Shown piece by piece: positions 5,755 to 56,713 of a DNA stretch of 64,000 nt. Under the pieces are notes generated by a model. That model was not told where the DNA came from and made no database searches. It saw only the letters and a list, made by a program, of their open reading frames with translations. A program made the translations under genes and the position numbers. Within the stretch, counting starts at the first letter, position 1. Each line of letters opens with the position of its first letter. The stretch is from an uncultured Armatimonadetes bacterium (GTDB taxonomy: Bacteria; Armatimonadota; UBA5829; DTJY01), in assembly GCA_963717145.1 (NCBI GenBank), contig OY970325.1, positions 160,001 to 224,000 on the forward strand, given 5' to 3'.

Positions 5755-5796
5755 CACAACGAGTGGGACGGCAAGGAAGCCGTCCCACTCGTTGTG
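5755..5796. terminator. Perfect 18-bp hairpin, probable bidirectional terminator
   Basis: CACAACGAGTGGGACGGC-AAGGAA-GCCGTCCCACTCGTTGTG between convergent genes. Confidence 0.7.
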
Positions 5797-5868
5797 TTAC
5801 TTGCCTTGACCGTGCCGCGCGTGGTTGCATCATCCGCTTGGCAGGGAGAAACTCCATCTTGTGTTCTG

Positions 5869-5930
5869 TGGCGGAGGAACCGTGCCCTCCGCATAAAGTG
5901 CCGGCGGTGTTCTCTCAAGTCCAAGAGACC
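5869..5930. repeat. ~62-bp repeat, copy 1 (att-like, carries a variant of the ssrA 3' tip)
   Basis: Aligns to 8490-8552 with 8 mismatches and 1 gap; last 21 nt identical (TTCTCTCAAGTCCAAGAGACC). Confidence 0.8.
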
Positions 5931-5972
5931 CATGTGAGTTTCGGGAACAAGCTTCCCGAAACACCGCTCAGC

Positions 5973-7196
5973 TCACTTGGCGTTCTTCTCTAGGCAGAGC
6001 AGTGCTCCCTGGCCCGGCGCGAGCCAGCAGTCTTCGCCTCCAAAGTCATAGGTATTGCCGCTGTACGCATTCACCTTCTGAACCTGCCCATTCTCTTTGA
6101 ATGTAACCCCGAATGGAGTGGACTTGTGGAGGTCCTTGTTCACCACCATCACGTAGGGCTGTCCGCCCGGCCCCTCGAACTCGCCGACAAGAAGGTTATC
6201 GCCGGTTATGGATTTCAGCAGCTTGCTTGTCGATATGCCCGAGCACTCCGCAGGCACCTCGGGATGGTGAAACACATTTGTACTCTTGAGAGTGACGTAG
6301 ACCGGGCAGAGGCGCTGAACCTGCATATTGACGTCACGCAGCATATCCCAGGTCGGCGTCTTGTGCCCGAACGGATCGATCGGAGACAGGCGATAGTTGC
6401 CCCTCGTTCTTCCGAAGTAGGTGAAGTAGCTGAGGCCACGGCCGCCGTAGGCCATAGTCGTGTATGCCTGGAAACGGAAGCCCGCCGGTGTCGGCTCGGC
6501 ATAGTGGAAGTGCGCGCAGGACAGCACGGTGTTCCAGAATGGCAGGTTGTGCTTTAGCGATGCTTTGCGCATGGACTCGAGGTTCCGGTAATAACCGTCC
6601 CGCACCGTCCCATCGTCCATCAGCGGATAGAAATCGTAGCTAAGGAACTGGGGCTGGACGGTTTTGACGAACAACTCAACATAATCATCATAGGTCGGGA
6701 CGCCGCCATACCATTCGGTAGGCGCATAGTTGGGCAATAGATTGATGTAAGCGAGCGCGTTTGGAGCGGCCTTCTTGAACGCCGCAACCCACCTTGCCAA
6801 TCCTGGGAACACATTTCCCGCCGGCTCGTCGCGCAGTGTATAGCCAAACACAGCCTTATGATTGCCGACGCGCTTCACTATGGCTTCCACTCGCCGATCG
6901 ATTTCAGGCCGATCGAGTTTCGCCTCGGCGTCGCCAACACTGCTATACACCAGGCACTGGAGACCTGCCGTGCTAACCGTATCCAGGTCCTCCGGGTGCG
7001 CGAACCCCGCCAGGTTGAACCCGCACTCGCGAATGTCCCTGAGCACATCCACGTCGTCCGGCACATCGTCCCACGGGATAATGGCAAAATCCGATGGTTC
7101 AAGCATAGGTTTCTCCACCGTTGCCGCAATCATGGTTGTAGCCAGGATTGAGGCCAGACCGGCTGTCACTGCCATCAAGAATACTGTCTTTCTCAC
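5973..7196 (-). CDS. Secreted glycoside-hydrolase-like TIM-barrel protein
   Basis: Signal peptide; GYTLRDEP, YINLLPNY, LSYDFY motifs; paralog of 43263-44504. Confidence 0.7.
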   Translation of the reverse strand: MRKTVFLMAVTAGLASILATTMIAATVEKPMLEPSDFAIIPWDDVPDDVDVLRDIRECGFNLAGFAHPEDLDTVSTAGLQCLVYSSVGDAEAKLDRPEIDRRVEAIVKRVGNHKAVFGYTLRDEPAGNVFPGLARWVAAFKKAAPNALAYINLLPNYAPTEWYGGVPTYDDYVELFVKTVQPQFLSYDFYPLMDDGTVRDGYYRNLESMRKASLKHNLPFWNTVLSCAHFHYAEPTPAGFRFQAYTTMAYGGRGLSYFTYFGRTRGNYRLSPIDPFGHKTPTWDMLRDVNMQVQRLCPVYVTLKSTNVFHHPEVPAECSGISTSKLLKSITGDNLLVGEFEGPGGQPYVMVVNKDLHKSTPFGVTFKENGQVQKVNAYSGNTYDFGGEDCWLAPGQGALLCLEKNAK

Positions 7197-7233
7197 CCCC
7201 TACCTATCCTTTCCGCGTGCATATAACTGCGGA

Positions 7234-8373
7234 CTAGCTATCGAAGAGTCCAACACTTCGTGCCCTTTCGTAGTTCCCGGTTTCAGCGCTCGAGCAGGGA
7301 CCCCAGACGTAGGACTCGCGAACGGACACCTCCGGGCCGCAGATTTCCAAGGTGGTCTTTATCTTCGCTGTCACGAGATTCATAAGCTCTCGTGCTCCAA
7401 CAGTATCTCCTGATTTGAGACCCAGCTTCTGCAGAACCCGCAGATCCTTCAGTTGGTCTCTGGTATAGATCCATAGGCACATGTGCTTGTCCGGATCGTA
7501 GGCCGTGCAGGGATCACATACCATACAACAGCCTTCATTGAGCGTAACAGGTATGTCGGGGTTGTCCCGCATCTTAACGAGTATCTCGTGCAGATTGTCA
7601 ACATCGAGCGGATTCTCAAGATCGCCCAGACCATAGTGGCACATCAGACACATCAGGTGGTGTGGCCTTATAAACAGCCTGTCCGCTTGCTCTATTCTCT
7701 TACAAGACTCCGCCTTGGCTTTGCGCACTTCCTCTTTTGTTCTTATAGGCAGAAGTGAGTAGGGCCCGCAACCTAACAGGTCCTCTCCGAGGTTCCAACA
7801 TGCGTCCAGGGAGTAGCATCTCTCCCCGCCCTTCTCGCGAGTCTGTCTGTAGTAGTCGGTCCGAGCGTACTCGCACGTAGGCCAATCCTGAGACAGCTCG
7901 AAGTCCTGGTAGCATATTCCTTTGAGGCTCTCTACCTTGAGGAACAGCAACCGCAGCACATCTATGGCTGGGTGTACTGTGTTTGGGCGGATGTCGAGCC
8001 TGCAAAGAACCTCCAGGTCTTTGGCTCTATTGGCGTAGTCTGCCATGCGCGCAGAAAAACCCTCCGGGAGCTGAGCGTGACAGTCCGAGTTTATGTCCAA
8101 ATAATGCGAACGCGCCAGGTCGAGGTCCGCAGTCAGCTTGAGTTGTACGAACGGATGGGAGCGAATCGCCTCCCTTATCGCATCTGTCACGACGCTTCCG
8201 CACGGAGGTCTCTGAGCGCCGGCTGCCGCGCATATGGCGCAGAGCAAATGGTGCGCTCTCAGCTCGAACACTTCTTCGTCAGCACGCGTCTTAGCTTCGC
8301 TGGTGGAACATGTGTCAGGCACATCTACTGTATTGAACACATCCATATCAGGGTGATCTACATCGCGATCCAT
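7234..8373 (-). CDS. Cys/His-rich protein with two DUF1284-like domains
   Basis: Repeated LRAHHLLC / IRPHHLMC motifs; CCMVCDPC; GGAGG RBS. Confidence 0.65.
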   Translation of the reverse strand: MDRDVDHPDMDVFNTVDVPDTCSTSEAKTRADEEVFELRAHHLLCAICAAAGAQRPPCGSVVTDAIREAIRSHPFVQLKLTADLDLARSHYLDINSDCHAQLPEGFSARMADYANRAKDLEVLCRLDIRPNTVHPAIDVLRLLFLKVESLKGICYQDFELSQDWPTCEYARTDYYRQTREKGGERCYSLDACWNLGEDLLGCGPYSLLPIRTKEEVRKAKAESCKRIEQADRLFIRPHHLMCLMCHYGLGDLENPLDVDNLHEILVKMRDNPDIPVTLNEGCCMVCDPCTAYDPDKHMCLWIYTRDQLKDLRVLQKLGLKSGDTVGARELMNLVTAKIKTTLEICGPEVSVRESYVWGPCSSAETGNYERARSVGLFDS

Positions 8374-8441
8374 GCGGTTTCCTCCGACGTTGACGATCTC
8401 TTCGTCGGCTGCATCGTGGATTCCTGCAAGTCTCAAATGCC

Positions 8442-8469
8442 AAAAGCCCCGGCGATCACGCCGAGGCTT
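8442..8469 (-). terminator. Rho-independent terminator (minus strand)
   Basis: AAGCCTCGGCG-TGAT-CGCCGGGGCTTTT on the minus strand. Confidence 0.65.
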
Positions 8470-8489
8470 CTAGCCTCTAACTTGTAGAC

Positions 8490-8552
8490 TGGTGGAGGAG
8501 TTGTTCCCTCCGCAAAAAGTGACGGCGGTTTTTCTCTCAAGTCCAAGAGACC
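8490..8552. repeat. ~62-bp repeat, copy 2 (att-like, carries the ssrA 3' tip)
   Basis: Starts with TGGTGGAGG, identical to ssrA 9206-9214; about 86% identical to 5869-5930. Confidence 0.8.
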
Positions 8553-8584
8553 ATAGAAGGACTCCGCTCCAGTTCTCCCTTAGC

Positions 8585-9049
8585 TCATTCGTTAGCCAAA
8601 TCCCACCCAAAACCCAGCGGCGGGTCGTCATCCGTGCTCGGGTTGCCACCGGTCGACGCGTAGAGCGCGATAGCAGGCTCGTTATTGACGCCGGTAGTCA
8701 GAAACATCTTCCGGTGTCCTTCGTTACGGCATACGTCGATCATTGCCTGCATTACCATCTTGCCGATTCCCTCTCGACGCCGGCTCGAGATCACGCCAAC
8801 TTCGTGCACATACATCATACGCGTCCTGCCCCAGATGCACGGCATGCTGTAGCCTAACGCAAAACCGAGAGGCGCATCCCCCTCGTATGCCGCGACAAGG
8901 TAGTTACTATCCACAGCCAGAAAACCGGCGATGAACTCCGTGTCGATACGAATGTCCTCGCCGTCTTCCTCCAGTTTGCACTTATTCACGACATCGGCAG
9001 CCAGCCGCTCATCGCCTGGGAGCAGTCTTCTCGCTATGATCCCGGTCAT
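8585..9049 (-). CDS. GNAT family N-acetyltransferase
   Basis: VHEVGVISSRRREGIGK motif A; NEPAIALY. Confidence 0.85.
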   Translation of the reverse strand: MTGIIARRLLPGDERLAADVVNKCKLEEDGEDIRIDTEFIAGFLAVDSNYLVAAYEGDAPLGFALGYSMPCIWGRTRMMYVHEVGVISSRRREGIGKMVMQAMIDVCRNEGHRKMFLTTGVNNEPAIALYASTGGNPSTDDDPPLGFGWDLANE

Positions 9050-9124
9050 TGCGCACCATCTTACCTTTCGATTCTTGCAAAACGCACCTAAGTTGTAACG
9101 ACCTCCAGCGCTATACAAAGCAAG

Positions 9125-9157
9125 ACCACGCTCATATCGTCAGGACATGAGCGTGGT
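9125..9157 (-). terminator. Hairpin downstream of ssrA, probable terminator
   Basis: ACCACGCTCAT-N11-ATGAGCGTGGT, followed by CTTGCTTT on the minus strand. Confidence 0.6.
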
Positions 9158-9205
9158 GCGGCTCACTCACATGAACAAACAGAGACGATTAATAACTAAT
9201 ATTGA

Positions 9206-9558
9206 TGGTGGAGGCGCGGGGACTCGAACCCCGGTCCAAAGAATAGCGCACATAAGCATCTACGAGCGTATCCCGAGATTTGTTTTCTCGCGCTTCGGTC
9301 TCCCTCGGGCAGGATACCTCTGCGCCAGCTCGATTTAGTGTCCCCTTCAGGCTCCCCGAGCGAGGTCCGTCAGGTAATCCGGCATTAGTTACGCCTGGAT
9401 CCGATCCGGCCGGAGGGGATCGGGCAGACGGGCTACCTTATTAGGCGGCCAGTGCGTAGCTGTTTGTGCCGTTTATAGGCTTCCCGCTTTTAACGAGGCC
9501 AGCGGGTCCTCGGCGCGCAACTCATGCTGCTATCGCTCTGTCAACTCCATTCGCCCCC
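9206..9558 (-). ncRNA. ssrA: tmRNA (transfer-messenger RNA)
   Basis: 5' GGGGGCG pairs with 3' CGCCTCC-ACCA (G3:U); T-arm GGGGTTCGAGTCCCC; tag ORF GTNSYALAA-stop-stop at 9470-9438; ~353 nt. Confidence 0.96.
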
Positions 9559-9632: not shown

Positions 9633-9661
9633 ATTATACCCGAAACCCCGCCTTTCGTCAA
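9633..9661 (-). promoter_or_regulatory. sigma70 promoter of ssrA
   Basis: Minus strand TTGACG-N17-TATAAT. Confidence 0.75.
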
Positions 9662-17746: not shown

Positions 17747-17848
17747 GCTTCTTGAGTGATCTTGCCTCGAATTAGTGGGCACCGGATAATAAGAGATGAG
17801 GTGACCCAAGATGAAGAGGCAGTATTCAGAAAGCTTCAAGGCGGAGGC

Positions 17849-19325
17849 GTAAGAGTTCACGATCATTGATAGTCTGAGCAGGAACCTTGGAGCGGACTGT
17901 CGAATGGCAGGTTGTGAACGATCTCGGCAACCTATCAAGAGAAGAACTGATCGGCATCGTCCTGGAGCAGCACCAGGCCGTCCTGGAATTGCGTGAAGGC
18001 GTGGACACCCTCACCGAACGCGTCCGAGCGCTTGAGAAGGAGAATGAAGAACTCCGGTCCAAGCTCGGTGGCGGCGGCAGGACGATACCTGCCTTTGTGA
18101 AGGCAAACCGGCCCGAGCGCAAGAAGAAGGATCGCAAGAAGCGGCAGAAGTCGTTTGCACGGCTGAGGGAGACTCCGACTGAGATCGTGGATCACGCGCT
18201 CGACACCTGTCCCGACTGCGGAAGGAAGCTCTCCGGCGGCACGGTGCATCACAGCCGGCAGGTGATCGAGATACCGGTGATGCCGGTCAGGATCATCGAG
18301 CACCTGGTGATCGGACGGTACTGCGGAGTCTGCCACAAGATACACGTGCCGAAGCTCGACCTCTCCGAAGAGGTGGTCGGGACACACCGGGTGGGCATCC
18401 GGCTGATGAGCCTGGTGAGCTATCTCCACACGGTCGGTAGAATGCCGGTCGAGCGTGTGCAGAAGCTTCTGGAATCACTCTACGGTCTGCATCTCGGGCT
18501 CGGAGAGATCGCGAAGATACTCCAGAAGGTGGCCTCCATGGGCAAGCCGGAGGTAGAGAAACTTCTGCAAGCAGTCAGAGGAAGCCCTACGGTGAACGCG
18601 GATGAGACCGGCTGGCGGGAAGATGGGAAGAACGGATACATCTGGAGCTTCACGACGCCACGCGTGCGCTACTTCGTCCGAAACAAGAGTCGGAGCGGCC
18701 AGGTCGCAAAAGACGTGCTGGGAGAGGACTACGAGGGTGTAGTCGTAAGCGACTTCTACTGCGGCTACAACGTGCTGCTCGGTTGGCATCAGCGGTGTTG
18801 GGTGCACTACCTGCGGGACTTGCGAACGCTCGTCGAGGCGAACCCTGACAAGAGAGGGGTAGCAGTCTGGGCCGGCAAGGTCAAGGCCGTTTACAGGCGC
18901 GCGAAGGCATTTTCGGGCGATGATTCGAAGGCCCGGCAGAAGCGGCGAATCGCATTCGAGGACGAGTTGCTTCGACTCGCCAGACCATATGTGAAGCGGG
19001 ATGTTCCGCAGAGGATACTCGCTGAGCGGATCGAGAGATTCCTGCCGGAGCTGTTTGTCTTCGTAGAATGTCCGGAAGTACCAAGCGAGAACAATGCGGC
19101 CGAGCGAGCGATCCGGCCTGCGGTAACAGCTCGCAAGATCAGCGGCGGCACACGATCGGCCAAGGGATCTGAGACCCGCATGGCGCTGATGAGTCTATTC
19201 GGAACCTGGCACTTGCGTGGTGAAGATGCGATGGAGTCATGTCGGCGAATGCTCGCGGGCGTTCCTCAGACACTCGCGACCGATCCAGCCTGACAACTTC
19301 ACTATCAACGATCGTGAACTCTTAC
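17849..19325 (+). mobile_element. IS66-family single-ORF element (ISBst12-type organisation)
   Basis: 25-bp IRs GTAAGAGTTCACGATC.TTGATAGT (24/25 match); 8-bp TSD GCGGAGGC (17841-17848, 19326-19333). Confidence 0.92.
17887..19293 (+). CDS. IS66-family transposase (TnpC-like)
   Basis: Coiled coil; CPDCG...C..C zinc finger; NADETGW, VSDFY, CWVH, NNAAERAIR. Start uncertain (GTG 17914 also possible). Confidence 0.92.
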   Translation: MERTVEWQVVNDLGNLSREELIGIVLEQHQAVLELREGVDTLTERVRALEKENEELRSKLGGGGRTIPAFVKANRPERKKKDRKKRQKSFARLRETPTEIVDHALDTCPDCGRKLSGGTVHHSRQVIEIPVMPVRIIEHLVIGRYCGVCHKIHVPKLDLSEEVVGTHRVGIRLMSLVSYLHTVGRMPVERVQKLLESLYGLHLGLGEIAKILQKVASMGKPEVEKLLQAVRGSPTVNADETGWREDGKNGYIWSFTTPRVRYFVRNKSRSGQVAKDVLGEDYEGVVVSDFYCGYNVLLGWHQRCWVHYLRDLRTLVEANPDKRGVAVWAGKVKAVYRRAKAFSGDDSKARQKRRIAFEDELLRLARPYVKRDVPQRILAERIERFLPELFVFVECPEVPSENNAAERAIRPAVTARKISGGTRSAKGSETRMALMSLFGTWHLRGEDAMESCRRMLAGVPQTLATDPA

Positions 19326-19573
19326 GCGGAGGCGGTGAAGTTGGCTTTTTCCGGCAGGGCGAGCAAAGCTCGGATCGCAAAGGAACTGGGAGTCAACATC
19401 AACAGCCTGGACGCCTGGATCAGGAAGTACAAGGAGAGCCTGGGAGAGATCGATCCCAGGAAGAGAGAGTCCCTTGAGGACGAAGTGAAGCGTCTCCGCA
19501 AGGAGAACGATCTCCTCCGAGAGGAGAGAGACATATTAAAAAAAGCGGCGGCGTACTTTGCGAGGGAGCAGCA

Positions 19574-20443
19574 GTGAAGTACGCCTTCATCGCTGCTCAA
19601 GACGGCCGCTTCAGGATCGGGACGATCTGCGGGGTGCTCGGTGTGAGCCGGAGCGGCTACTACGCGTGGCAGGGGCGTCCCGAAAGCGATCGCGCCAGGA
19701 AGAACGAGAAGCTGCTCACACGGATCAGGGAGGTCCACGCCGAGAGCAGAGACACCTACGGTAGCCCGAGGGTTCACATACGGCTTCGGCAGGCGGGTGA
19801 GACCTGCAGCAGAGGCCGTGTGGCCAGGCTCATGACAGCAAACGGAATCCGCGCAAGACAGAAACGGAAGTTCCGTGTTACGACTAACTCCAGGCACAAC
19901 CAGCCTGTGGCGGCGAATCTGCTCAAGAGAAACTTCGAGGTAGCCAGACCGAACAGTGTCTGGGTAAGCGACATAACGTATGTGCATACCCGTGAGGGTT
20001 GGCTCTATCTTTCGGCGGTGATGGATCTTTACTCGCGCCAGATAGTGGGCTGGTCGATGAAAGAGACGCTTGGGAGTGTGCTCGCAAGTGAGGCGCTCAG
20101 GATGGCATACAAGAACAGAAGACCGGTCGGCGAAGTCATCCATCATTCGGATCGAGGGTGTCAGTACGCGAGCGGCGAATTTCGTAGGCTTCTCGAAGCC
20201 TACGAAATTCGAGCCAGCATGAGCGGCGCCGGGAACTGCTATGACAACGCCCCGATGGAGAGCTTCTTTGCGACGCTTAAGGCCGAGCTGATACATCATC
20301 GAACATACTCCTCACGAGAGGAAGCGAGATCTGATATCTTCGAGTACATCGAAGTGTTCTACAATCGGCAGCGACTCCACTCGAGCCTCGGCTATCGGAG
20401 TCCCGCCGACTTCGAGGCGGCCGCTCTCGAACGAGCGGCCTAG
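19574..20443 (+). CDS. IS3-family transposase OrfB (copy 1)
   Basis: WVSDITY, HSDRGCQY, DNAPMESFF (DDE). Confidence 0.93.
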   Translation: MKYAFIAAQDGRFRIGTICGVLGVSRSGYYAWQGRPESDRARKNEKLLTRIREVHAESRDTYGSPRVHIRLRQAGETCSRGRVARLMTANGIRARQKRKFRVTTNSRHNQPVAANLLKRNFEVARPNSVWVSDITYVHTREGWLYLSAVMDLYSRQIVGWSMKETLGSVLASEALRMAYKNRRPVGEVIHHSDRGCQYASGEFRRLLEAYEIRASMSGAGNCYDNAPMESFFATLKAELIHHRTYSSREEARSDIFEYIEVFYNRQRLHSSLGYRSPADFEAAALERAA

Positions 20444-20516
20444 GTGATCTGTCCACGAAAACTGATCTTGCCTCGAATTAGTGGGCACCGGATAATAAGA
20501 GATGAGGTGACCCAAG

Positions 20517-20794
20517 ATGAAGAGGCAGTATTCAGAAAGCTTCAAGGCGGAGGCGGTGAAGTTGGCTTTTTCCGGCAGGGCGAGCAAAGCTCGGATCGCA
20601 AAGGAACTGGGAGTCAACATCAACAGCCTGGACGCCTGGATCAGGAAGTACAAGGAGAGCCTGGGAGAGATCGATCCCAGGAAGAGAGAGTCCCTTGAGG
20701 ACGAAGTGAAGCGTCTCCGCAAGGAGAACGATCTCCTCCGAGAGGAGAGAGACATATTAAAAAAAGCGGCGGCGTACTTTGCGAGGGAGCAGCA

Positions 20795-20798
<4 letters not shown>
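20517..20798 (+). CDS. IS3 OrfA (HTH)
   Basis: YSESFKAEAV, IAKELGV, LKKAAAYFA. Confidence 0.93.
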
Positions 20799-24995
<4,197 letters not shown>

Positions 24996-29696: not shown

Positions 29697-31643
29697 TCAA
29701 CCATTCCCCAGGCGGATTTCCATCAGGCACTCGGCGCAATCGAAGCGGAGTTCGAGGCGGTGCCCTTCCTCATCGACGAGCGAGAGCGCCCCGGATCGAG
29801 TCCGGGGTTGCGCCCCGTCCTTTGGGCATAGTCCGAGTTGGTGCTTGATGCAGTAGCGCGTCGTCATCACGCGTCGTCCGCGCATGTCGAGCCCTGACTC
29901 GGCTGCGGGTTCGATCTTCGTCACGCCGTGCCGCCGGTAGAACTCCTCGGCCTTGCGATTCAGCACGTTCCCCTCGAAGGTCAGGTCGGTCGCGGGGTAG
30001 GGGACGTCGTTCCGGATCGATCCTCCCTCCAGTCGCGGTCGGTTCTCTTCGCGGACCGTCGAGAGTTCCTCCAAGACTCCGCGCCGCAGCGAGTTCAGCG
30101 CCGAGATCGGTACGAACGGAACCTCCGGCAGATCAATCTCAACCTCCGGGGCCTCGAAGTCAGTGCCCCCCATCTTGGTCAGTTGTCTGCGGATGTTCTC
30201 AAGCGCCTGATCGGGCTTCTGCGCGGTCTCCCTCTCGCACGGGATCGTGAACTCTGCCGCGTTGCCATCCTCATCGACCGCCGTGATTGTCAGGCCGTCG
30301 GGCGACTCGCTCAGCGTCAGGGCGACCCCGATCTTCCTCTCGGGCTGTGACTTCTCCAGGCGCGTAAGGAACTCGTGGTCGTGATTGCGGTAGATCATCG
30401 TGCCCGGCTCGATGCTGACCGGCTTGTCGGTCACAACCGTCCGGCCCTTGACGCCGTTGACGACCGTGCCCCTGAGCCTGCACTGGCGGTCGAACCAGGT
30501 GATTCCATCGCCGTTGTGGAGCGGGATATCCGTGTCGATCATCACGTCTCGGCGGCTGACCCTGATCACCGGCCCGATCGGTTCGCCGATCATCTTGGGG
30601 GTGTCGGGCGAGCCGATCCTGTCGGTCCGCCCGTGGAGGAAGTAGTCGGTGTATCCGCGGTTGAATGTCTTGGCCAGGTCCGGCGTGAAGTCGATCGTGC
30701 TCCGACCGGAGGAAGTACGCTTTGGGGGCGCGCCTTGTGCCGCCTTACCTGCGCTACTCCGTAGGGGCGATCCTTCAACGGTCGCCCGTTGTACAGCGTC
30801 CGGCGGCACAAAGCGCGCCCCTACAACGTGGCGGGCGACCGTTGAAGGATCGCCCCTACGGAGCACTTTGTCTAACTCCTGGCGGTAATATGAGACAACA
30901 TTGGTCACATAGGCCTTGTCCTTCAGCCGGCCCTCGATCTTGAACGAGCAGACGCCCGCATCGATCAGCTCGCCAAGATGCTCGGAGAGGTTGAAGTCGC
31001 GGAGGGAGAGCAGGTGCTTCCGGTACTCCAGGACCTTGTCGCTCCGGTCGATCAGCTTGTAGGGCTTGCGACACGGCTGAGCGCACTGCCCCCGGTTGCC
31101 ACTCCGACCGCCGAGCGCATAGCTGAGGTAGCACTGCCCGCTGTAACAAACGCAGAGCGCTCCGTGGATGAAGCACTCCAGCTCGATGTCGGTGGCGGCC
31201 CGGATCGCGCGGATCTCATCGAGCGTCAACTCCCGCGCCAGGATCGCCCGCTTGATGCCGACTTTGCCAAGGAATGCGACCCGTTCGGGCGTGTTGTTGT
31301 GCATCTGAGTGCTCGCGATGAGGGGGATCGGCGGGAGGTCGCACTCCAGGAGGCCGGCGTCCTGGATGATCAGGCCGTCGATCCCGATGTCGTGGAGCTG
31401 CTCGATCAGCCGTACCGCCTGGGGGATCTCATCGTCGCGCAGGATGGTGTTCACCGTTGCATAGACTTTCGCCCAGAACTTGTGCGCGTGCCTCAGGAGT
31501 TCGGCGATGTCGTCGAGGCTGTTCCCGGCGGATTCGCGCGCGCCGAACCGTGCAGCGCCGATGTACACGGCATCGGCGCCGCAGTCGATCGCCGCTATCC
31601 CGCATTCCAAGTCTTTGGCAGGCGCCAGTAGTTCGATTGTCAT
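29697..31643 (-). CDS. Peptidase U32 family protein, RlhA (YdcP)-like with DUF3656 region
   Basis: ELLAPA, GADAVYIG, ASTQ, ILAREL, HGALCVCYSGQC, NRGQCAQPCR, KIEGRLK, FNRGYT; C-terminal MTTRYCIK. Confidence 0.9.
   Translation of the reverse strand: MTIELLAPAKDLECGIAAIDCGADAVYIGAARFGARESAGNSLDDIAELLRHAHKFWAKVYATVNTILRDDEIPQAVRLIEQLHDIGIDGLIIQDAGLLECDLPPIPLIASTQMHNNTPERVAFLGKVGIKRAILARELTLDEIRAIRAATDIELECFIHGALCVCYSGQCYLSYALGGRSGNRGQCAQPCRKPYKLIDRSDKVLEYRKHLLSLRDFNLSEHLGELIDAGVCSFKIEGRLKDKAYVTNVVSYYRQELDKVLRRGDPSTVARHVVGARFVPPDAVQRATVEGSPLRSSAGKAAQGAPPKRTSSGRSTIDFTPDLAKTFNRGYTDYFLHGRTDRIGSPDTPKMIGEPIGPVIRVSRRDVMIDTDIPLHNGDGITWFDRQCRLRGTVVNGVKGRTVVTDKPVSIEPGTMIYRNHDHEFLTRLEKSQPERKIGVALTLSESPDGLTITAVDEDGNAAEFTIPCERETAQKPDQALENIRRQLTKMGGTDFEAPEVEIDLPEVPFVPISALNSLRRGVLEELSTVREENRPRLEGGSIRNDVPYPATDLTFEGNVLNRKAEEFYRRHGVTKIEPAAESGLDMRGRRVMTTRYCIKHQLGLCPKDGAQPRTRSGALSLVDEEGHRLELRFDCAECLMEIRLGNG
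30724..30859. repeat. Four-unit REP cluster inside the U32 coding region
   Basis: GTAGGGGCGATCCTTCAACGGTCGCCCG (30761) and its inverse (30832-30859); GGCGGCACAAAGCGCGCCCCTAC and a degenerate inverse. Confidence 0.88.
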
Positions 31644-31757: not shown

Positions 31758-33224
31758 GTAACAGTTCACGCTTGGGGATAACGAGTTTGATCAGGCAGGG
31801 AAGAGGACAGACTTGCCTGCGAGCAGTTGCCTGCATGATTCGAGCATGTCCAGACCCCTGACGTGCCATGTGCCAAACAGACTCATGAGCGTCATCTTTG
31901 TCTCGGAACCCTTCGCGCTTCGTGTGCCTCCGCATACCTTGCGGGCGATCACACACGGCCTCAGCGCTCGTTCTGCGCCATTGTTGTCCGACGGTACTTC
32001 CGGGTACTCTACGAACATGAACAACTCGTGCAAGCGATCTATGAATCTCTTTGCCAGCGTCTGCTGTGGAGCATCTGAGCCGACATACGGACCTGAGAGC
32101 GCCTCTACCTCTTCCTCGAAGAGTACTCGCTTCCACTTGCGAACCTCCGCCTTCTTGCTCCGGAACTCCTTTGCCCGATCGTAAACACCCTTCACCGCAT
32201 CCGCCCATGCGATGACGCCCGTGTCGTCCGCGTTCCTCTCCTTCAGTTTGTGCAGATCCCTGGCCAGATGTGCCCAGCATATCTGGCGGTCTGCAACTAC
32301 CGGGTTGTATCCGGCATAGCAATCCGTTACCACTACCCCTTCGTAGTCGCCGCCTATCGTTTCCTTCGGGATCTCTCCACTCCGACTCCGCCGGTAGATG
32401 AAGTATCGCACGTTCTTAGTGGAGAAGGTCCAGATGTATCCGTTCAGCCCATCCTCTCTCCAGCCCGTCTCGTCTGCGTTTATGTATGGGCTTCCACGTA
32501 CAAGCGAGAGTAGCCGCTCTTTCTCTTTTTTGCCACAGTCTGCCACCGTGTGCAATATCTCGCTTATCTCTCCCACAGAGAGCTGAAGACCATACAGAGC
32601 CTTCAGCAATCCCTGTATCGTCCGCTTTGTCATGCGACCTACCGTCGAAAGATACGATATCAGGCTCATCAGGTTCACGCCTACCCGATGCTTGCCTACA
32701 ACCTGGCCGGAAAGGTCAACCTTCGGCACATGACTCTTGCCACAGTATCCGCATCTTCTGGCGATGAACCTGTGCTCGACTACGTCCACAGGCACGATGG
32801 GGATGTCGATGACTTGGCGGAGTCTCTTTACCGTGCCCCCTGTGAGCGCTCGGCCGCAGTCCGGACACTTCGAGTGCGCGTGCTCGACTACACGGGTGGG
32901 TGTCTCCCGCCTGCGCACGAACGACTTCTTGCGCTTCTTTCGTTCAGCTGCCCGGCGCTCTTTGCGGTTCGGCTTCACCCAGTCAGGCACGGATGGGGAA
33001 CTGCCATCACCGCCGGAAAGCCTGGCGCGAAGGTCTTCGTTCTCCTTCTCCAGGTCGCCGATACGCGCCACGAGTTGGGGAACTAGACCTTCCAACTGGC
33101 TGACCCTGGCCTCAAGCTCCTCGTATGTCGGCTTGGATTGCTCGCTCACACTCCTTGGTTCGAGACGCTCCCAGCAGGTTCCTTCTTCTTACAGACAAAA
33201 TAATCCCTAAGCCTGAACTGTTAC
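31758..33224 (-). mobile_element. IS66-family single-ORF element, copy A
   Basis: IRs GTAACAGTTCA.GCTT; left TSD CTCCGGAC at 31750-31757. Confidence 0.92.
31791..33149 (-). CDS. IS66-family transposase
   Basis: CPDCG, NADETGW, VTDCYAGY, CWAH, DNNGAERALR. Confidence 0.92.
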   Translation of the reverse strand: MSEQSKPTYEELEARVSQLEGLVPQLVARIGDLEKENEDLRARLSGGDGSSPSVPDWVKPNRKERRAAERKKRKKSFVRRRETPTRVVEHAHSKCPDCGRALTGGTVKRLRQVIDIPIVPVDVVEHRFIARRCGYCGKSHVPKVDLSGQVVGKHRVGVNLMSLISYLSTVGRMTKRTIQGLLKALYGLQLSVGEISEILHTVADCGKKEKERLLSLVRGSPYINADETGWREDGLNGYIWTFSTKNVRYFIYRRSRSGEIPKETIGGDYEGVVVTDCYAGYNPVVADRQICWAHLARDLHKLKERNADDTGVIAWADAVKGVYDRAKEFRSKKAEVRKWKRVLFEEEVEALSGPYVGSDAPQQTLAKRFIDRLHELFMFVEYPEVPSDNNGAERALRPCVIARKVCGGTRSAKGSETKMTLMSLFGTWHVRGLDMLESCRQLLAGKSVLFPA

Positions 33225-33232
33225 CCCTGAAA

Positions 33233-34708
33233 GTAACAGTTCACGCTTGGGGATAACGAGTTTGATCAGGCAGGGAAGAGGACAGACTTGCCTGCGAGCA
33301 GTTGCCTGCATGATTCGAGCATGTCCAGACCCCTGACGTGCCATGTGCCAAACAGACTCATGAGCGTCATCTTTGTCTCGGAACCCTTCGCGCTTCGTGT
33401 GCCTCCGCATACCTTGCGGGCGATCACACACGGCCTCAGCGCTCGTTCTGCGCCATTGTTGTCCGACGGTACTTCCGGGTACTCTACGAACATGAACAAC
33501 TCGTGCAAGCGATCTATGAATCTCTTTGCCAGCGTCTGCTGTGGAGCATCTGAGCCGACATACGGACCTGAGAGCGCCTCTACCTCTTCCTCGAAGAGTA
33601 CTCGCTTCCACTTGCGAACCTCCGCCTTCTTGCTCCGGAACTCCTTTGCCCGATCGTAAACACCCTTCACCGCATCCGCCCATGCGATGACGCCCGTGTC
33701 GTCCGCGTTCCTCTCCTTCAGTTTGTGCAGATCCCTGGCCAGATGTGCCCAGCATATCTGGCGGTCTGCAACTACCGGGTTGTATCCGGCATAGCAATCC
33801 GTTACCACTACCCCTTCGTAGTCGCCGCCTATCGTTTCCTTCGGGATCTCTCCACTCCGACTCCGCCGGTAGATGAAGTATCGCACGTTCTTAGTGGAGA
33901 AGGTCCAGATGTATCCGTTCAGCCCATCCTCTCTCCAGCCCGTCTCGTCTGCGTTTATGTATGGGCTTCCACGTACAAGCGAGAGTAGCCGCTCTTTCTC
34001 TTTTTTGCCACAGTCTGCCACCGTGTGCAATATCTCGCTTATCTCTCCCACAGAGAGCTGAAGACCATACAGAGCCTTCAGCAATCCCTGTATCGTCCGC
34101 TTTGTCATGCGACCTACCGTCGAAAGATACGATATCAGGCTCATCAGGTTCACGCCTACCCGATGCTTGCCTACAACCTGGCCGGAAAGGTCAACCTTCG
34201 GCACATGACTCTTGCCACAGTATCCGCATCTTCTGGCGATGAACCTGTGCTCGACTACGTCCACAGGCACGATGGGGATGTCGATGACTTGGCGGAGTCT
34301 CTTTACCGTGCCCCCTGTGAGCGCTCGGCCGCAGTCCGGACACTTCGAGTGCGCGTGCTCGACTACACGGGTGGGTGTCTCCCGCCTGCGAACGAACGAC
34401 TTCTGGCGCTTCTTTCGTTCGGCTGCCCGGCGCTCTTTGCGGTTCGGCTTGACCCAGTCAGGTATGGGGGTGGAACTGCCGCCACCCGAGAGCTTTGCCT
34501 TGAGATCCTCCAGTTCCTTGACGAGACGCTGGATCATCTCCCGCTGCTCCAGGACAATGCCCACCAATTCTTCTCTTGTCAGACCGTCGAACTCTTCCAC
34601 ACAGGCATGTTCCACCCGCCCGGCCAAGGGTCCTTCCTATTGCAAGCCGACAATGTCGGAAAAACTCTCACTGCTCTCGCAAAATGATCCACAAGCCTGA
34701 ACTGTTAC
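33233..34708 (-). mobile_element. IS66-family single-ORF element, copy B
   Basis: IRs as in copy A; right TSD CTCCGGAC at 34709-34716; 8-bp spacer CCCTGAAA separates it from copy A. Confidence 0.92.
33266..34627 (-). CDS. IS66-family transposase (N-terminus differs from copy A)
   Basis: Identical to copy A from SFVRRRETP onward; start codon uncertain. Confidence 0.9.
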   Translation of the reverse strand: MAGRVEHACVEEFDGLTREELVGIVLEQREMIQRLVKELEDLKAKLSGGGSSTPIPDWVKPNRKERRAAERKKRQKSFVRRRETPTRVVEHAHSKCPDCGRALTGGTVKRLRQVIDIPIVPVDVVEHRFIARRCGYCGKSHVPKVDLSGQVVGKHRVGVNLMSLISYLSTVGRMTKRTIQGLLKALYGLQLSVGEISEILHTVADCGKKEKERLLSLVRGSPYINADETGWREDGLNGYIWTFSTKNVRYFIYRRSRSGEIPKETIGGDYEGVVVTDCYAGYNPVVADRQICWAHLARDLHKLKERNADDTGVIAWADAVKGVYDRAKEFRSKKAEVRKWKRVLFEEEVEALSGPYVGSDAPQQTLAKRFIDRLHELFMFVEYPEVPSDNNGAERALRPCVIARKVCGGTRSAKGSETKMTLMSLFGTWHVRGLDMLESCRQLLAGKSVLFPA

Positions 34709-34816
34709 CTCCGGACTGCCAAGAGGAAACGTCAAATAGGAGGGAGAAGTATTAGCCCGTAAGCCGCTGGTAGTAATCTGGTCGCACGGGATGCTTATTA
34801 CTCAGGAGGCGCGGTG

Positions 34817-42014: not shown

Positions 42015-43082
42015 ATGAAGAGGCTGTTTGCGGTGCCGGCAATGCTCATGCTACTATGCCTCAGCCTACGCGTCGAGGCGGAGAACCAGTATGCGCTACG
42101 GCAGTTGCCGGTTCCTGCGGGAACTACAGAGAGTGAGGCCAGGGGAATCAATGACGCGGGCGACGCCGCGGGATATGCAAGTAGCCGACCGGACCCCAAC
42201 TGCTTTTCGTACGCCTTGAGATGGCAGCAGAACTCATTCACGATTCTTGGTGACGGAGAGGCATACGATATCAACAACTCGGGAGTTGTTGTGGGTCGCG
42301 GCAACGGGCATGCGATGCAATACACCGATGACAGTGACATCACGATGCACGGCTTCACCGCCAGAGAAGGACACCCTGAGGCGTGCAGCGCTCTCTCGGT
42401 CAGTAATACGGGCTATGTTGCTGGTTGGGCGACCAATCCTAACACCGCTCGTGAATGTTCCATAGGATGGCTTCTCCCGAGCACCTTAGGCAGCAGTCCA
42501 GCTAACAGCTTCGGAAGGGCTTCAGATGTGAATGACTTGGGAGAGTACGTCGGCCAGTCGTACGATGCGTATGGTGGTGGAGCAACCTACTGGAGCGGCA
42601 CCTCCGAAGCTGCTGAGAAGATCTACTACCCAAGTTTCACTGGTGGACGCGGTGGTGAAGCGTATGGCGTGAACAACGCAGGAGTGACAGTAGGGTACAT
42701 AGGCAACCACGCGGTGCTTTGGGCTTCCCCGTTTGCAGCGCCAGTGGACCTCTGTCCGGACATGCCCGCTCAGGGCTATTCGCTAGCCTGGCGGATTAAT
42801 GAACATGGGCGGGTGATTGGCTACACATTCGACGGATTGTATGACCGGGCCTGGTTCTGGGACGCGAGTGGAGGCATGCATATGCTCCCAGACGTGGGGT
42901 TTGGGTGTATGGCCTATGGTATCAACAACCGGAGTGCCGACAGCGATATCGCTGGGGCGGTCTTTGATTCGGCCGGTGTGCCTCATGCTGTGGTCTGGCA
43001 GGTGATTCCTGAGCCATCGAGCCTCCTGGCGCTTGGGAGCGGCTTGCTCGCACTGGGCAGCCTCGTCCGAAGACGGCGGTAG
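42015..43082 (+). CDS. PEP-CTERM protein with HAF-like repeats
   Basis: Signal peptide; repeated A.GINxxG.VVG...HAVLW; IPEPSS-TM-RRRR. Confidence 0.9.
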   Translation: MKRLFAVPAMLMLLCLSLRVEAENQYALRQLPVPAGTTESEARGINDAGDAAGYASSRPDPNCFSYALRWQQNSFTILGDGEAYDINNSGVVVGRGNGHAMQYTDDSDITMHGFTAREGHPEACSALSVSNTGYVAGWATNPNTARECSIGWLLPSTLGSSPANSFGRASDVNDLGEYVGQSYDAYGGGATYWSGTSEAAEKIYYPSFTGGRGGEAYGVNNAGVTVGYIGNHAVLWASPFAAPVDLCPDMPAQGYSLAWRINEHGRVIGYTFDGLYDRAWFWDASGGMHMLPDVGFGCMAYGINNRSADSDIAGAVFDSAGVPHAVVWQVIPEPSSLLALGSGLLALGSLVRRRR

Positions 43083-43113
43083 CTCGTCTGTCGCCCAGGA
43101 CGGTAGCTTCCCA

Positions 43114-55477: not shown

Positions 55478-56569
55478 ATGACAGGGCGGAAAGTCGTTCG
55501 TTTCACTGCACTACTGGTCTTGCTCCTCGCTTGGAGCGGCTCGGCATTCGCCGGGTGGACTCTCACCAGTCTCTATCCCTCCAGCACCGTGAACTCCCAG
55601 GCCGAGGGCGTCGCCGGCCAGCAGCAAGTCGGATACGGAGCTGCCACCAGCGACAACAAGAAGCACGCCTTCCTCTGGACCGGCTCCTCGGGAAGCAGGG
55701 TGGACCTGACTCCCGCGGAGGCCACCGAGGCCTGGGCCATCGGCACATCCGGGGCGAAGCAGGTCGGGTACGCCTTGGTGGGAGGAAACACGAAGGCGTC
55801 GCTCTGGAACGGCACAGCGGGCAGTTGGGTGAACCTCAATCCGGTCGGCTACACTAGTTCCTACGCCTACGGCATGTGGAGCAACACACAGGTGGGAGCA
55901 GTGCTGACCAGCGGCGGCGCCCACGCGGGCTTGTGGCAAGGGACGGCCGGGAGTTGGGTGGATCTCAATCCCCTGAGCGCCACCAGGTCCTACGCCTACG
56001 CCGCCTGGGGCGATCAGCAGGTGGGATACGCGTACTACTCCAGCAAGGACCGCGCCGGCTTATGGACCGGCACCCCAGGAAGCTGGGTCTCGCTCCATCC
56101 CACCACCGCCAGTGCATCGTACGCTTACGATGTCTGCAACGGTCAGCAGGTCGGATACGTCAACATATCCGGCGCCAAGGCCTCTCTGTGGACCGGCACG
56201 GCCGCGAGCAGGGTTGACCTGCACCCGGCCACCGCGACCTCGTCCTATGCCTACGGCGTCTCTAATGGATACCAGGCCGGATACGCCTGGTTCCCCGGCA
56301 GTGTCAAGAAAGCCGGAGTCTGGCACGGAACGGCCGCCAGTTGGGAGGACCTTCACAGTGCGCTTCCATCCAACTACTCGGCCTCGCAGGCGAAGGACAT
56401 CGCCGTGGCGGGCGCCGATATCTGGGTCGTAGGCCTGGCTCGCAACAGCACGACCGGACGCGACGAAGCCATCCTCTGGCACTACACCATCGTCCCCGAG
56501 CCGTCGGGCCTCCTCGCGCTGGGGAGCGGCCTGCTCGCACTGGGCGGCCTCATCCGACGACGACGGTAG
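55478..56569 (+). CDS. PEP-CTERM protein with ~43-aa repeats (QQVGY...A.LW.GTA.SWVDL.P)
   Basis: Signal peptide; about 6 repeats; VPEPSG-TM-RRRR. Confidence 0.92.
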   Translation: MTGRKVVRFTALLVLLLAWSGSAFAGWTLTSLYPSSTVNSQAEGVAGQQQVGYGAATSDNKKHAFLWTGSSGSRVDLTPAEATEAWAIGTSGAKQVGYALVGGNTKASLWNGTAGSWVNLNPVGYTSSYAYGMWSNTQVGAVLTSGGAHAGLWQGTAGSWVDLNPLSATRSYAYAAWGDQQVGYAYYSSKDRAGLWTGTPGSWVSLHPTTASASYAYDVCNGQQVGYVNISGAKASLWTGTAASRVDLHPATATSSYAYGVSNGYQAGYAWFPGSVKKAGVWHGTAASWEDLHSALPSNYSASQAKDIAVAGADIWVVGLARNSTTGRDEAILWHYTIVPEPSGLLALGSGLLALGGLIRRRR

Positions 56570-56713
56570 ATCATCCCTCGCACCGTTCAGCCTTTCCACA
56601 CGGGGCAGGGGTCCAACTCCTGCCCCGACTGCTTGCCGGCCACCATTCACTTCCCCACTTCTCCCCATCGCGGTATAATGGAGTGCGAGCGCCCGAACAC
56701 CAATGGAGGCATC

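Follow-up and report, generated by a model that had tools for sequence, protein, structure and literature searches.

Known systems and the ssrA locus

Integration hotspots at tRNA and tmRNA genes are usually detected via an integrase gene together with a displaced fragment of the target gene. Here we analyse a 64,000-nucleotide stretch of DNA (the window, positions 160,001–224,000) from the single 5.37-Mb contig (60.6% G+C) of an uncultured Armatimonadetes bacterium, the focal genome, denoted G000. In this window two short blocks of genes follow the tmRNA gene, ssrA, and each of them ends in a repeat of ~60 nt (denoted REP) whose last bases repeat the tip of ssrA. We propose that the region 5869–9205 is a stack of two gene cassettes, which were probably inserted at the last bases of ssrA through site-specific recombination by an enzyme acting in trans. 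Since the REP cassettes come without an integrase and without a displaced gene fragment, island finders would miss them; we found no description of the REP element in the literature searched, which left out most subscription journals.

Integrons carry an IntI-type tyrosine recombinase beside the cassette array, and clusters of attC sites lacking integron integrases (CALINs) consist of such sites alone. An attC site has imperfect inverted R''-L''/L'-R' boxes, with a GTTRRRY box at the cassette boundary, and can fold into a hairpin. Like integrons and CALINs, the Armatimonadota arrays have small, mostly single-gene cassettes, a conserved end element, a fixed entry site and diverse accessory cargo, and they may lack a recombinase. 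A fixed entry site combined with variable arrays is seen at ssrA itself, where a cassette encoding a GNAT acetyltransferase lies between ssrA and the cassette that directly abuts ssrA in G007 (a genome of another genus of the same family), and where metagenome contigs skip the GNAT unit. The array had been called integron-like in an earlier note made from the letters of the window, and this holds only as an analogy, because neither an IntI nor the features of attC are present. All three matches of G000 to the tyrosine-recombinase profile PF00589 lie far from the window, and none of 206 open reading frames (ORFs) from REP loci is a recombinase, in scans that included no IntI-specific models. 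REP ends in CCTCCACCA, has no GTTRRRY/RYYYAAC at its ends, shows no R''/L''-L'/R' symmetry and has no consensus fold. Unlike in integrons, the cassette platform is the tip of an RNA gene, and the cassettes cannot rely on a common promoter because each of them starts with a terminator.

Staphylococcal cassette chromosome (SCC) elements are units of 20–60 kb at the 3' end of rlmH in staphylococci, served by the serine recombinases CcrAB or CcrC, and ccr-less pseudo-SCC elements also exist. The Armatimonadota arrays resemble SCC in that they are tandem composites of cassettes, sit at the 3' end of a gene that is essential and single-copy, and are bounded by short direct repeats; some of the cassettes would need a recombinase in trans. 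They are unlike SCC in that their units are about ten times smaller, and the SCC enzymes are known.

Going by the available portion of the study, the ssrA islands of Dehalococcoides (PMC3146451), for which a parallel with SCC and CcrAB has been drawn, are the nearest described system. They are tandem islands at ssrA with strain-variable accessory genes, and their repeat is a 20-bp copy of the ssrA end; 16 of the 31 islands have a serine-recombinase module (DsiB/DsiA) beside attL, and the half or so without an integration module were proposed to be cis-mobilizable (PMC3146451). As described there, the two systems share tandem units 3' of ssrA that are bounded by direct repeats of its end, a layout that we found in eight other genomes besides G000. 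In Armatimonadota, unlike in Dehalococcoides, the identity to ssrA spans 9 bp rather than 20 and sits within a ~60-nt tag kept across four families, the units are mostly of 0.4–3 kb, and the 206 ORFs include no recombinase. Some relatives carry a serine recombinase gene convergent to ssrA, arranged as DsiB is in the available account of Dehalococcoides, but it joins ~300 nt downstream. Genomic islands in tRNA and tmRNA genes have been catalogued by Islander (PMC4383910). Islands of this kind likewise target the 3' part of a tDNA, which is regenerated, and a displaced end copy marks the far boundary. They have a tyrosine integrase, and the fragment displaced by them is a true piece of the gene, whereas REP is not a gene fragment.

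Cassettes behind ssrA and the repeat that ends them

All features of the array are on the minus strand. The ssrA gene occupies 9206–9558 (ARAGORN; Rfam RF00023, 156.5 bits), with a promoter-like site found by scan at 9661–9633, and its last 9 nt (9206–9214) form the shared core CCTCCACCA. REP copies were scored with R1, a sequence-only covariance model built from the three REP copies of G000 (match threshold E≤1e-5). Cassette 1 (8490–9205, 716 bp), delimited by junction comparison and blastn, consists of a B-type trailer, a GNAT gene and REP copy 2. The trailer (9114–9205; junction print-out, blastn and terminator scan) holds a terminator hairpin at 9157–9125. The GNAT ORF (8585–9118; Pfam PF00583, E 1e-16) has a longest frame of 177 aa, with an ATG near 9051 judged by eye to be the likelier start. 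REP copy 2 (8490–8552, 63 nt; R1 79.6 bits) is the 3' end tag of the cassette and ends in CCTCCACCA.

Cassette 2 (5869–8489, 2621 bp) begins with an A-type trailer (8384–8489; folds, blastn) made of GTTAGAN-like heptamers, a terminator hairpin at 8469–8442 and a TTTTGG tail. Two genes follow, one for a DUF1284-domain protein (7234–8436; Pfam PF06935, E 1.1e-7; longest frame 400 aa, likely ATG near 8374) and one for a 407-aa protein (5973–7196) to which the Pfam scan assigned no family. Behind a hairpin at 5934–5960, REP copy 1 (5869–5930, 62 nt; R1 81 bits) closes the cassette as its 3' end tag and ends in CCTCCGCCA. The distal flank (5755–5868; folds, junction print-out) starts as a degenerate C-type trailer and continues into a long hairpin, 5796–5755, between convergent genes. 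The three genes between the cores thus all lie on the ssrA strand.

Most of what the earlier note had read here was borne out: the two repeats differ by 8 mismatches and 1 gap column, share their final 21 nt and are co-oriented with ssrA; they end in the ssrA tip, exactly in copy 2 and as CCTCCGCCA in copy 1; and the core-to-core distances are 716 and 2621 bp. Its gene labels were confirmed by Pfam for GNAT and DUF1284, and the label "glycoside-hydrolase-like" for the 407-aa ORF was not, as this ORF has no Pfam match. Among the three hairpins it had called terminator-like, 9157–9125 was flagged by our scan; 8469–8442 and 5796–5755 were not flagged by this simple scan and are strong in folding (z -3.7 and -5.0).

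The boundaries of the cassettes emerge from a comparison of G000 with G007. In G007 the CCACCA end of ssrA passes directly into an A trailer, behind which come genes for a DUF1284 protein and a 404-aa protein and then a REP; G000 has this series (A trailer, DUF1284 gene, 407-aa gene, REP) behind the CCACCA of REP copy 2. Because G007 joins ssrA directly to the cassette 2 series, the GNAT unit with its 716 bp represents an insertion, located precisely between the CCA end of ssrA and an older cassette. By blastn the two genomes are 96.9% identical in the A trailer, 94.0% in the DUF1284 gene (1170 nt), 90.6% in the 407-aa gene (1248 nt) and 86.9% in the hairpin and REP, and their likeness in cassette 2 stops at window positions 8481 and 5868; ssrA itself is only 77.6% identical. 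This contrast, 91–97% for cassette 2 versus 78% for ssrA, indicates horizontal sharing between genera and, judged from these identities, cassette 2 moved between the genera more recently than the genera diverged. The DUF1284 protein has a homologue in G007 (E 1.1e-10), and the 407-aa protein an 89% identical counterpart in G007-type contigs. Cassette 2 also occurs in G006 (89.6% identity), in G031, of another family, where it is 78–82% identical and stands behind a different REP, and in a metagenome contig, again behind another REP.

Sediment metagenomes supply further variants of the locus; this comparison, at ≥90% likeness, used the assembled contigs of four sediment runs rather than raw reads. 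In the contig sets of all four, ssrA and cassette 2 are covered. Two studies each have one contig in which 8318 or 8388 adjoins 9206, the GNAT unit being skipped, and alongside these two bridging contigs the coverage of 8721–9122 is low in the four runs. Another metagenome contig departs into unrelated DNA at REP copy 2. A search of the 60 relatives for the GNAT protein gave no match at E≤1e-20. On the point of cargo, which the earlier note had put forward as a check, the relatives do vary: the genes between REP copies differ in every array.

REP is conserved mainly in TTTGGACT, GAGAGAAAAC, CCGCCGTCAC, TTGCGGAGG and TCCTCCACCA, with a variable 6–8 nt between the last two. It shares with ssrA only its last 9 nt and the motif TTTGGAC, which in ssrA stands immediately 5' of the T-arm. 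The core takes the form CCTCC(A/G)CCA at 9206, 8490 and 5869. The 21-mer common to the repeats occurs twice in the window at ≤3 mismatches, against 0.01 occurrences expected from shuffles, and the motif is not scattered over the genome, so that the cassette reading passes a check put forward in the earlier note. Over the whole 5.37 Mb, R1 finds three strong copies (E 1e-20 to 1e-22), followed by a next best match at E 0.005; two of the three lie behind ssrA and the third behind a 3' fragment of ssrA.

This third copy, detected by blastn-short and by R1, is located at genome positions 4,992,464–4,992,519, and ARAGORN finds no tRNA within 90 kb of it. A scan by Rfam E-value places a displaced 3' fragment of ssrA 1.7 kb upstream on the same strand (genome 4,994,232–4,994,325, or 7233–7326 of locus L001, minus strand); the fragment is ~95 nt long, 84% identical to the resident ssrA, and ends in CTCCACCA. 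The order at this locus is ssrA fragment, C-type trailer with terminator, ankyrin-repeat gene, REP copy 3, trailer with terminator and esterase gene, and the pattern of the window is therefore repeated there. The fragment directly follows the stop codon of a 657-aa GH43-like ORF and, if the contig is circular, lies ~542 kb "downstream" of ssrA in the same orientation. True ssrA fragments are thus present in addition to REPs, another example being one of 92 nt in a metagenome contig (L107). In coordinates oriented on its REP, this contig has a full ssrA at 226–573, a copy of its own 3' end at 806–896 (~230 nt later) and a REP at 1644, so that true duplications of the ssrA end and REP units coexist in one stack.

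The comparison set comprises 61 related genomes, G000 included, in families f1–f13; most relatives are fragmented metagenome-assembled genomes, and since they are kin the counts that follow are not independent samples. R1 matches occur in 24 of the 61 genomes and in four families: at E≤1e-5, REP was found in 7 of 11 genomes of f1, 4 of 6 of f3, 11 of 28 of f4 and both genomes of f5, as opposed to none of 6 in f2 and none of 8 in f6–f13. Matches in families other than that of G000 reach E 1e-21, and REP is 85–95% identical across genera. An exact search with a degenerate 24-mer from the conserved 5' half of REP returned 18 records among 185,579 species genomes, 15 of them titled Armatimonadota or Armatimonadetes and three without a taxon in the title, and 23 metagenome contigs. 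REPs are clustered on one strand with a spacing of 0.4–3 kb, with six copies in G004:C18 and three or four in each of G032:C30, C102 and C105. In nine genomes (G000, G004, G005, G007, G016, G023, G032, G040 and G047) they stand 3' of a complete ssrA with which they share contig and strand, mostly within a few kb. The array of G032:C102, a contig without a full ssrA, is preceded by an ssrA fragment. An association of REP with tRNA genes was considered and dismissed, 37 of 39 REP loci being without a tRNA gene.

When the DNA following every ssrA and every REP was printed and compared, the likeness among REPs was found to end at the final CCA. The next 70–100 nt after the core belong to one of three trailer classes, each with its own terminator hairpin. 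Trailer A consists of tandem GTTAGAN-like heptamers and a hairpin, trailer B of a short GAGAC/GTCTC hairpin, a TTGTTGTTCATG-like stretch and a hairpin, and trailer C of an AACAAC...GTTTCTCTCT stretch and a hairpin. Behind ssrA we find class B in G000, G040 and G023, class A in G007, G016 and G032, and class C in G005, G008, G009, G012 and G037; class B also stands behind REPs in G040 and G009, and the classes are distributed without phylogenetic order. Because the same classes follow ssrA and REPs alike, the unit is a trailer with its terminator, the cargo and a REP. The hairpins that the earlier note had attached to the repeat before them are therefore better read as part of the 5' trailer of the next cassette.

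A conserved non-coding module of ~300 nt follows the core of ssrA or of a terminal REP in several relatives. It contains the C trailer, two CCTTTGGACT motifs, GTTTTCTCT motifs and a 30-nt palindrome, and the region past the C trailer carries both TTTGGACT and GTTTTCTCT motifs. Instances are L079 3116–3415 (G009), L080 2560–2859, L077 2088–2387, L057 6070–6368 and L049 4178–4475. The module has a stable fold (z -4.3) and no entry in Rfam; it may represent the ancestral state of the DNA 3' of ssrA.

The proposed recombinase and competing explanations

The window contains no tyrosine or serine recombinase gene, in agreement with the earlier note: all 3 PF00589 (tyrosine) and all 7 PF00239 (serine) matches of the genome lie elsewhere, in a survey that left IS transposases aside. 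Nor was such a gene found in 20 REP loci, in which ORFs were called with a crude greedy caller. Seven ssrA-linked loci gave 85 ORFs (minimum length 100 aa) and thirteen other loci 121 (minimum length 110 aa); none of these 206 has a Phage_integrase, Resolvase or Recombinase domain, and one encodes a transposase of the DDE type. Scans over the whole of 23 REP-positive genomes likewise placed no PF00589 or PF00239 match inside an ssrA-linked array. Cis-mobilizable elements (CIMEs) have at their flanks the att sites of a family of integrative elements and encode no recombination or transfer functions themselves. In these terms, the cassettes have the flanking cores and lack the recombinases, and a parent integrative element with shared att sites was not found.

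Two enzymes found near these loci were considered as candidates. A large serine recombinase with Resolvase, Recombinase and Zn_ribbon domains is convergent to ssrA in G008, G009, G012 and G037, lies 5 kb off in G025, and is present in one IMG/VR contig; because it is flanked by DUF2924 and M15 peptidase genes, it appears prophage-like. Its family occurs in 21 of the 61 genomes, all of f1, f3, f4 or f5 (the family range of REP), and in 14 of 24 REP-positive versus 7 of 37 REP-negative genomes, these relatives not being independent. An Xer-like tyrosine integrase, 65% identical between G040 and G008, lies near REPs in both genomes, 9–25 kb from the prophage serine recombinase on the same contigs. 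It found no support as the cassette enzyme, as it occurs in 7 of the 24 REP-positive genomes, has no core beside it and is absent from G000. A viral origin of REP was not supported either, the REP pattern having no match in IMG/VR. Five IMG/VR records with an ssrA-linked serine integrase contain no REP, and as these records are 20–55% complete this is weak evidence.

In G000 the gene closest to the ssrA-linked serine recombinase is a 33%-identical pseudogene beside tRNA-Asn. It belongs to a cluster of serine-recombinase genes at genome positions 4,901,534–4,905,771, next to the tRNA-Asn gene at 4,901,392, in which one gene is a frameshifted large serine recombinase 33–40% identical to the ssrA-linked prophage integrase of the relatives; the cluster is probably a decayed element. 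Other large serine recombinases of G000 lie near tRNA-Glu (957,827) and tRNA-Met (2,023,071).

Whether REP acts as DNA or as RNA bears directly on the explanation of the array. The earlier note had offered a small structured RNA ending in an ACCA minihelix as its alternative. In a wider form of this reading, REP would be a 3'-UTR element or a small RNA with an ACCA minihelix mimicking the acceptor end of tmRNA or tRNA, and its place behind ssrA would reflect common processing or termination signals. REP does lie 3' of coding genes, with a terminator 20–70 nt later in all three G000 copies, and a 7-bp hairpin, GCGGAGG/CCTCC(A/G)C, can be drawn, whose mismatch is restored to a pair by a G in three copies and by a T in seven. 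Pairing in this hairpin is nevertheless no better than in shuffled controls (78.5% versus 78.7%), its covariation is the same (0.051 versus 0.051), and at pair 2 a C/A mismatch is the commonest state, found in 28 of 38 copies. RNAalifold gives no consensus pairs over 48 REP copies, no Rfam family is significant for REP, and isolated copies have ordinary folding energies (z -1.0 to +0.3 on the plus strand; -0.03 for the copy 3 region). The second dyad pointed out in the earlier note, TCTCT-N8-AGAGA, is indeed invariant between the two window copies and is not kept in copy 3 or in most of the 48 members. An RNA role would also leave the insertion polymorphism unexplained, and we regard it as very improbable. 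Since REP is conserved as primary sequence rather than as structure, a protein-bound DNA site fits it better than a folded RNA. Its dyad with a variable spacer beside the core is reminiscent of a tyrosine-recombinase core site at which only one strand pair would be exchanged.

If REP is a DNA site, the blocks might still be what is left of larger islands or prophages with an integrase of their own, which entered one after another at ssrA and whose recombination modules were later lost, making them relics akin to cis-mobilizable elements; the blocks would never have been mobile as single-gene cassettes, and REP would be the conserved attP arm of the island family. Such a history has a precedent in the tandem ssrA islands of Dehalococcoides, 15 of 31 of which lack an integrase according to the available part of that study (PMC3146451). 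It would also accord with the absence of a candidate recombinase from G000, and with the presence of a serine-recombinase remnant ~7 kb from a REP in G008 and of a split tyrosine integrase ~1.5 kb from another REP. What makes it unlikely is that tblastn detected no recombinase remnant in REP loci L039–L058 or in 41 further REP loci, that cassettes with unrelated cargo are as small as 0.4–0.8 kb, that the DUF1284 cassette keeps both of its boundaries in four contexts, and that the five IMG/VR records with the ssrA-linked integrase hold no REP. Exchange by transformation and homologous recombination, with REP, ssrA and the trailers serving as portable homology and without a dedicated recombinase, seems less probable again. 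The identity of REP across genera would provide short anchors, and ssrA, the A trailer and the DUF1284 flanks could serve as arms for import of the GNAT unit; yet REP, with its 60 nt and a match to ssrA of 9 nt, is poorly suited to homologous recombination, ssrA is only 78% identical between genera whose cassette is 91–97% identical, and the origin of junctions exactly at the CCA end would be left unexplained.

We therefore favour gene cassettes inserted at the ssrA tip, a reading already advanced in the earlier note and supported by the G007 junction, the contigs that skip the GNAT block, the varied cargo and the lack of a recombinase in the 20 loci. Each cassette consists of a trailer, one or two cargo genes and a ~60-nt REP ending in the 9 nt of the ssrA tip. 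A circular cassette would recombine through its REP core with the identical core of the ssrA tip or with that of a resident REP, the crossover presumably falling inside the 9-bp core, and the 5' trailer with its terminator would re-terminate whatever stands upstream, be it ssrA or the previous cassette. New cassettes would enter beside ssrA and push older ones outward, as at the attI site of integrons. REP would be the recombination arm borne by the cassette, conserved as DNA sequence. The recombinase would act in trans, being encoded neither in the cassettes nor recognisably in G000, and the G000 array is therefore probably at rest now.

Several observations weigh against this reading. No circle junction or excision product was seen, in data that consisted of contigs rather than raw reads. 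The rule that the newest cassette lies next to ssrA rests on one genome pair, the identity between REP and ssrA is only 9 bp, and many arrays in relatives lie on contigs without ssrA, so that anchoring at ssrA is not strict. None of the recombinases could be linked to the core: in G000 the tyrosine type is represented only by two Xer-like enzymes and a third of another kind, and the serine recombinases adjoin tRNA genes; the REP-bearing genomes G027, G035 and G045 have only two tyrosine-recombinase matches each, both Xer-like by score. Every comparison shows the ~300-nt module to be the same behind ssrA with the prophage and behind REPs without it, the likeness ending ~+299 past the core, so the prophage integrates at the distal end of this module and not at the tip. 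Its large serine recombinase was accordingly rejected as the enzyme of the core junction, since it joins ~300 nt downstream of the tip and G000 lacks it. A dif-like (Xer) site at the junction is unsupported, because the trailers fall into three unrelated classes and no conserved right arm extends across it; the Xer pair itself stays among the candidates for the enzyme.

More tentatively, and with doubts that outweigh our confidence, we suggest that the arrays represent a gene-capture platform of Armatimonadota that is integron-like but built from other parts. The ssrA tip would be the entry site and REP the cassette site, the trailers would re-terminate, and the enzyme, either the host Xer pair or an unrecognised one, would belong to a class so far not connected with the capture of cassettes. 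Should the units indeed be taken up singly at the tmRNA tip, this would be a second, independent solution to the problem solved by integrons, the modular acquisition of single genes at a fixed site, and it would be found in a poorly studied phylum. The ssrA tip and REP offer a well-defined pair of sites with which to fish out the enzyme, and the arrays also map a pool of accessory and defence genes.

Cargo and other features of the window

The cargo of the cassettes is mixed, comprising GNATs, HEAT and ankyrin proteins, oxidoreductases, glycosidases, regulators and many ORFs without a family. PADLOC matched 8 of 61 cassette ORFs at E≤1e-8, namely AriA, AriB, a type II restriction endonuclease and methyltransferase pair, a deaminase, a methyltransferase, a PD-DExK/NucC-like nuclease and an ankyrin protein. 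With 8 of 61 ORFs the cargo is not mainly defensive, and the idea that cassettes are enriched in defence genes was dropped. The defence genes in the pool are PARIS-like AriA/AriB, type II restriction-modification, nuclease and TIR genes, accompanied by many unknowns. Among the relatives, PARIS-like AriA/AriB, a type II restriction-modification pair and ThsB-like TIR proteins are carried by the cassettes at L041 5849–8091 (G007), L042 4324–7094 (G040) and L081 3030–4054 (G036). Cargo of the cassette type is also found ~5 kb past the last REP of the window, where positions 509–980 match the DNA that separates two REPs of G032:C102 (L049 7317–7809) at 82% identity over 493 nt.

Other repeats of the window concern different elements. 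An 18-mer at 8559–8576 has 23 matches in the genome, which proved to be a chance likeness to the interior of an IS element. IS-like repeats lie at 17757–21432 and 31758–34720, with exact duplicates of 300 nt and 93 nt, and a separate IS family has 23 identical internal 100-nt stretches genome-wide. At 24024–24149, 23609–23698 and 30717–30873 a 42-nt unit stands three times in tandem, with related perfect palindromes of 29–32 nt nearby (of the GGGCGATCC...GGTCGCCC type); these look like intergenic palindromes of the kind known as repetitive extragenic palindromes and bacterial interspersed mosaic elements (REP/BIME, a name unrelated to our REP), and have no relation to the cassettes. Finally, the stretches at 43008–43094 and 56495–56581 are 84% identical and, translated by eye, encode putative PEP-CTERM-like C-terminal sorting signals.

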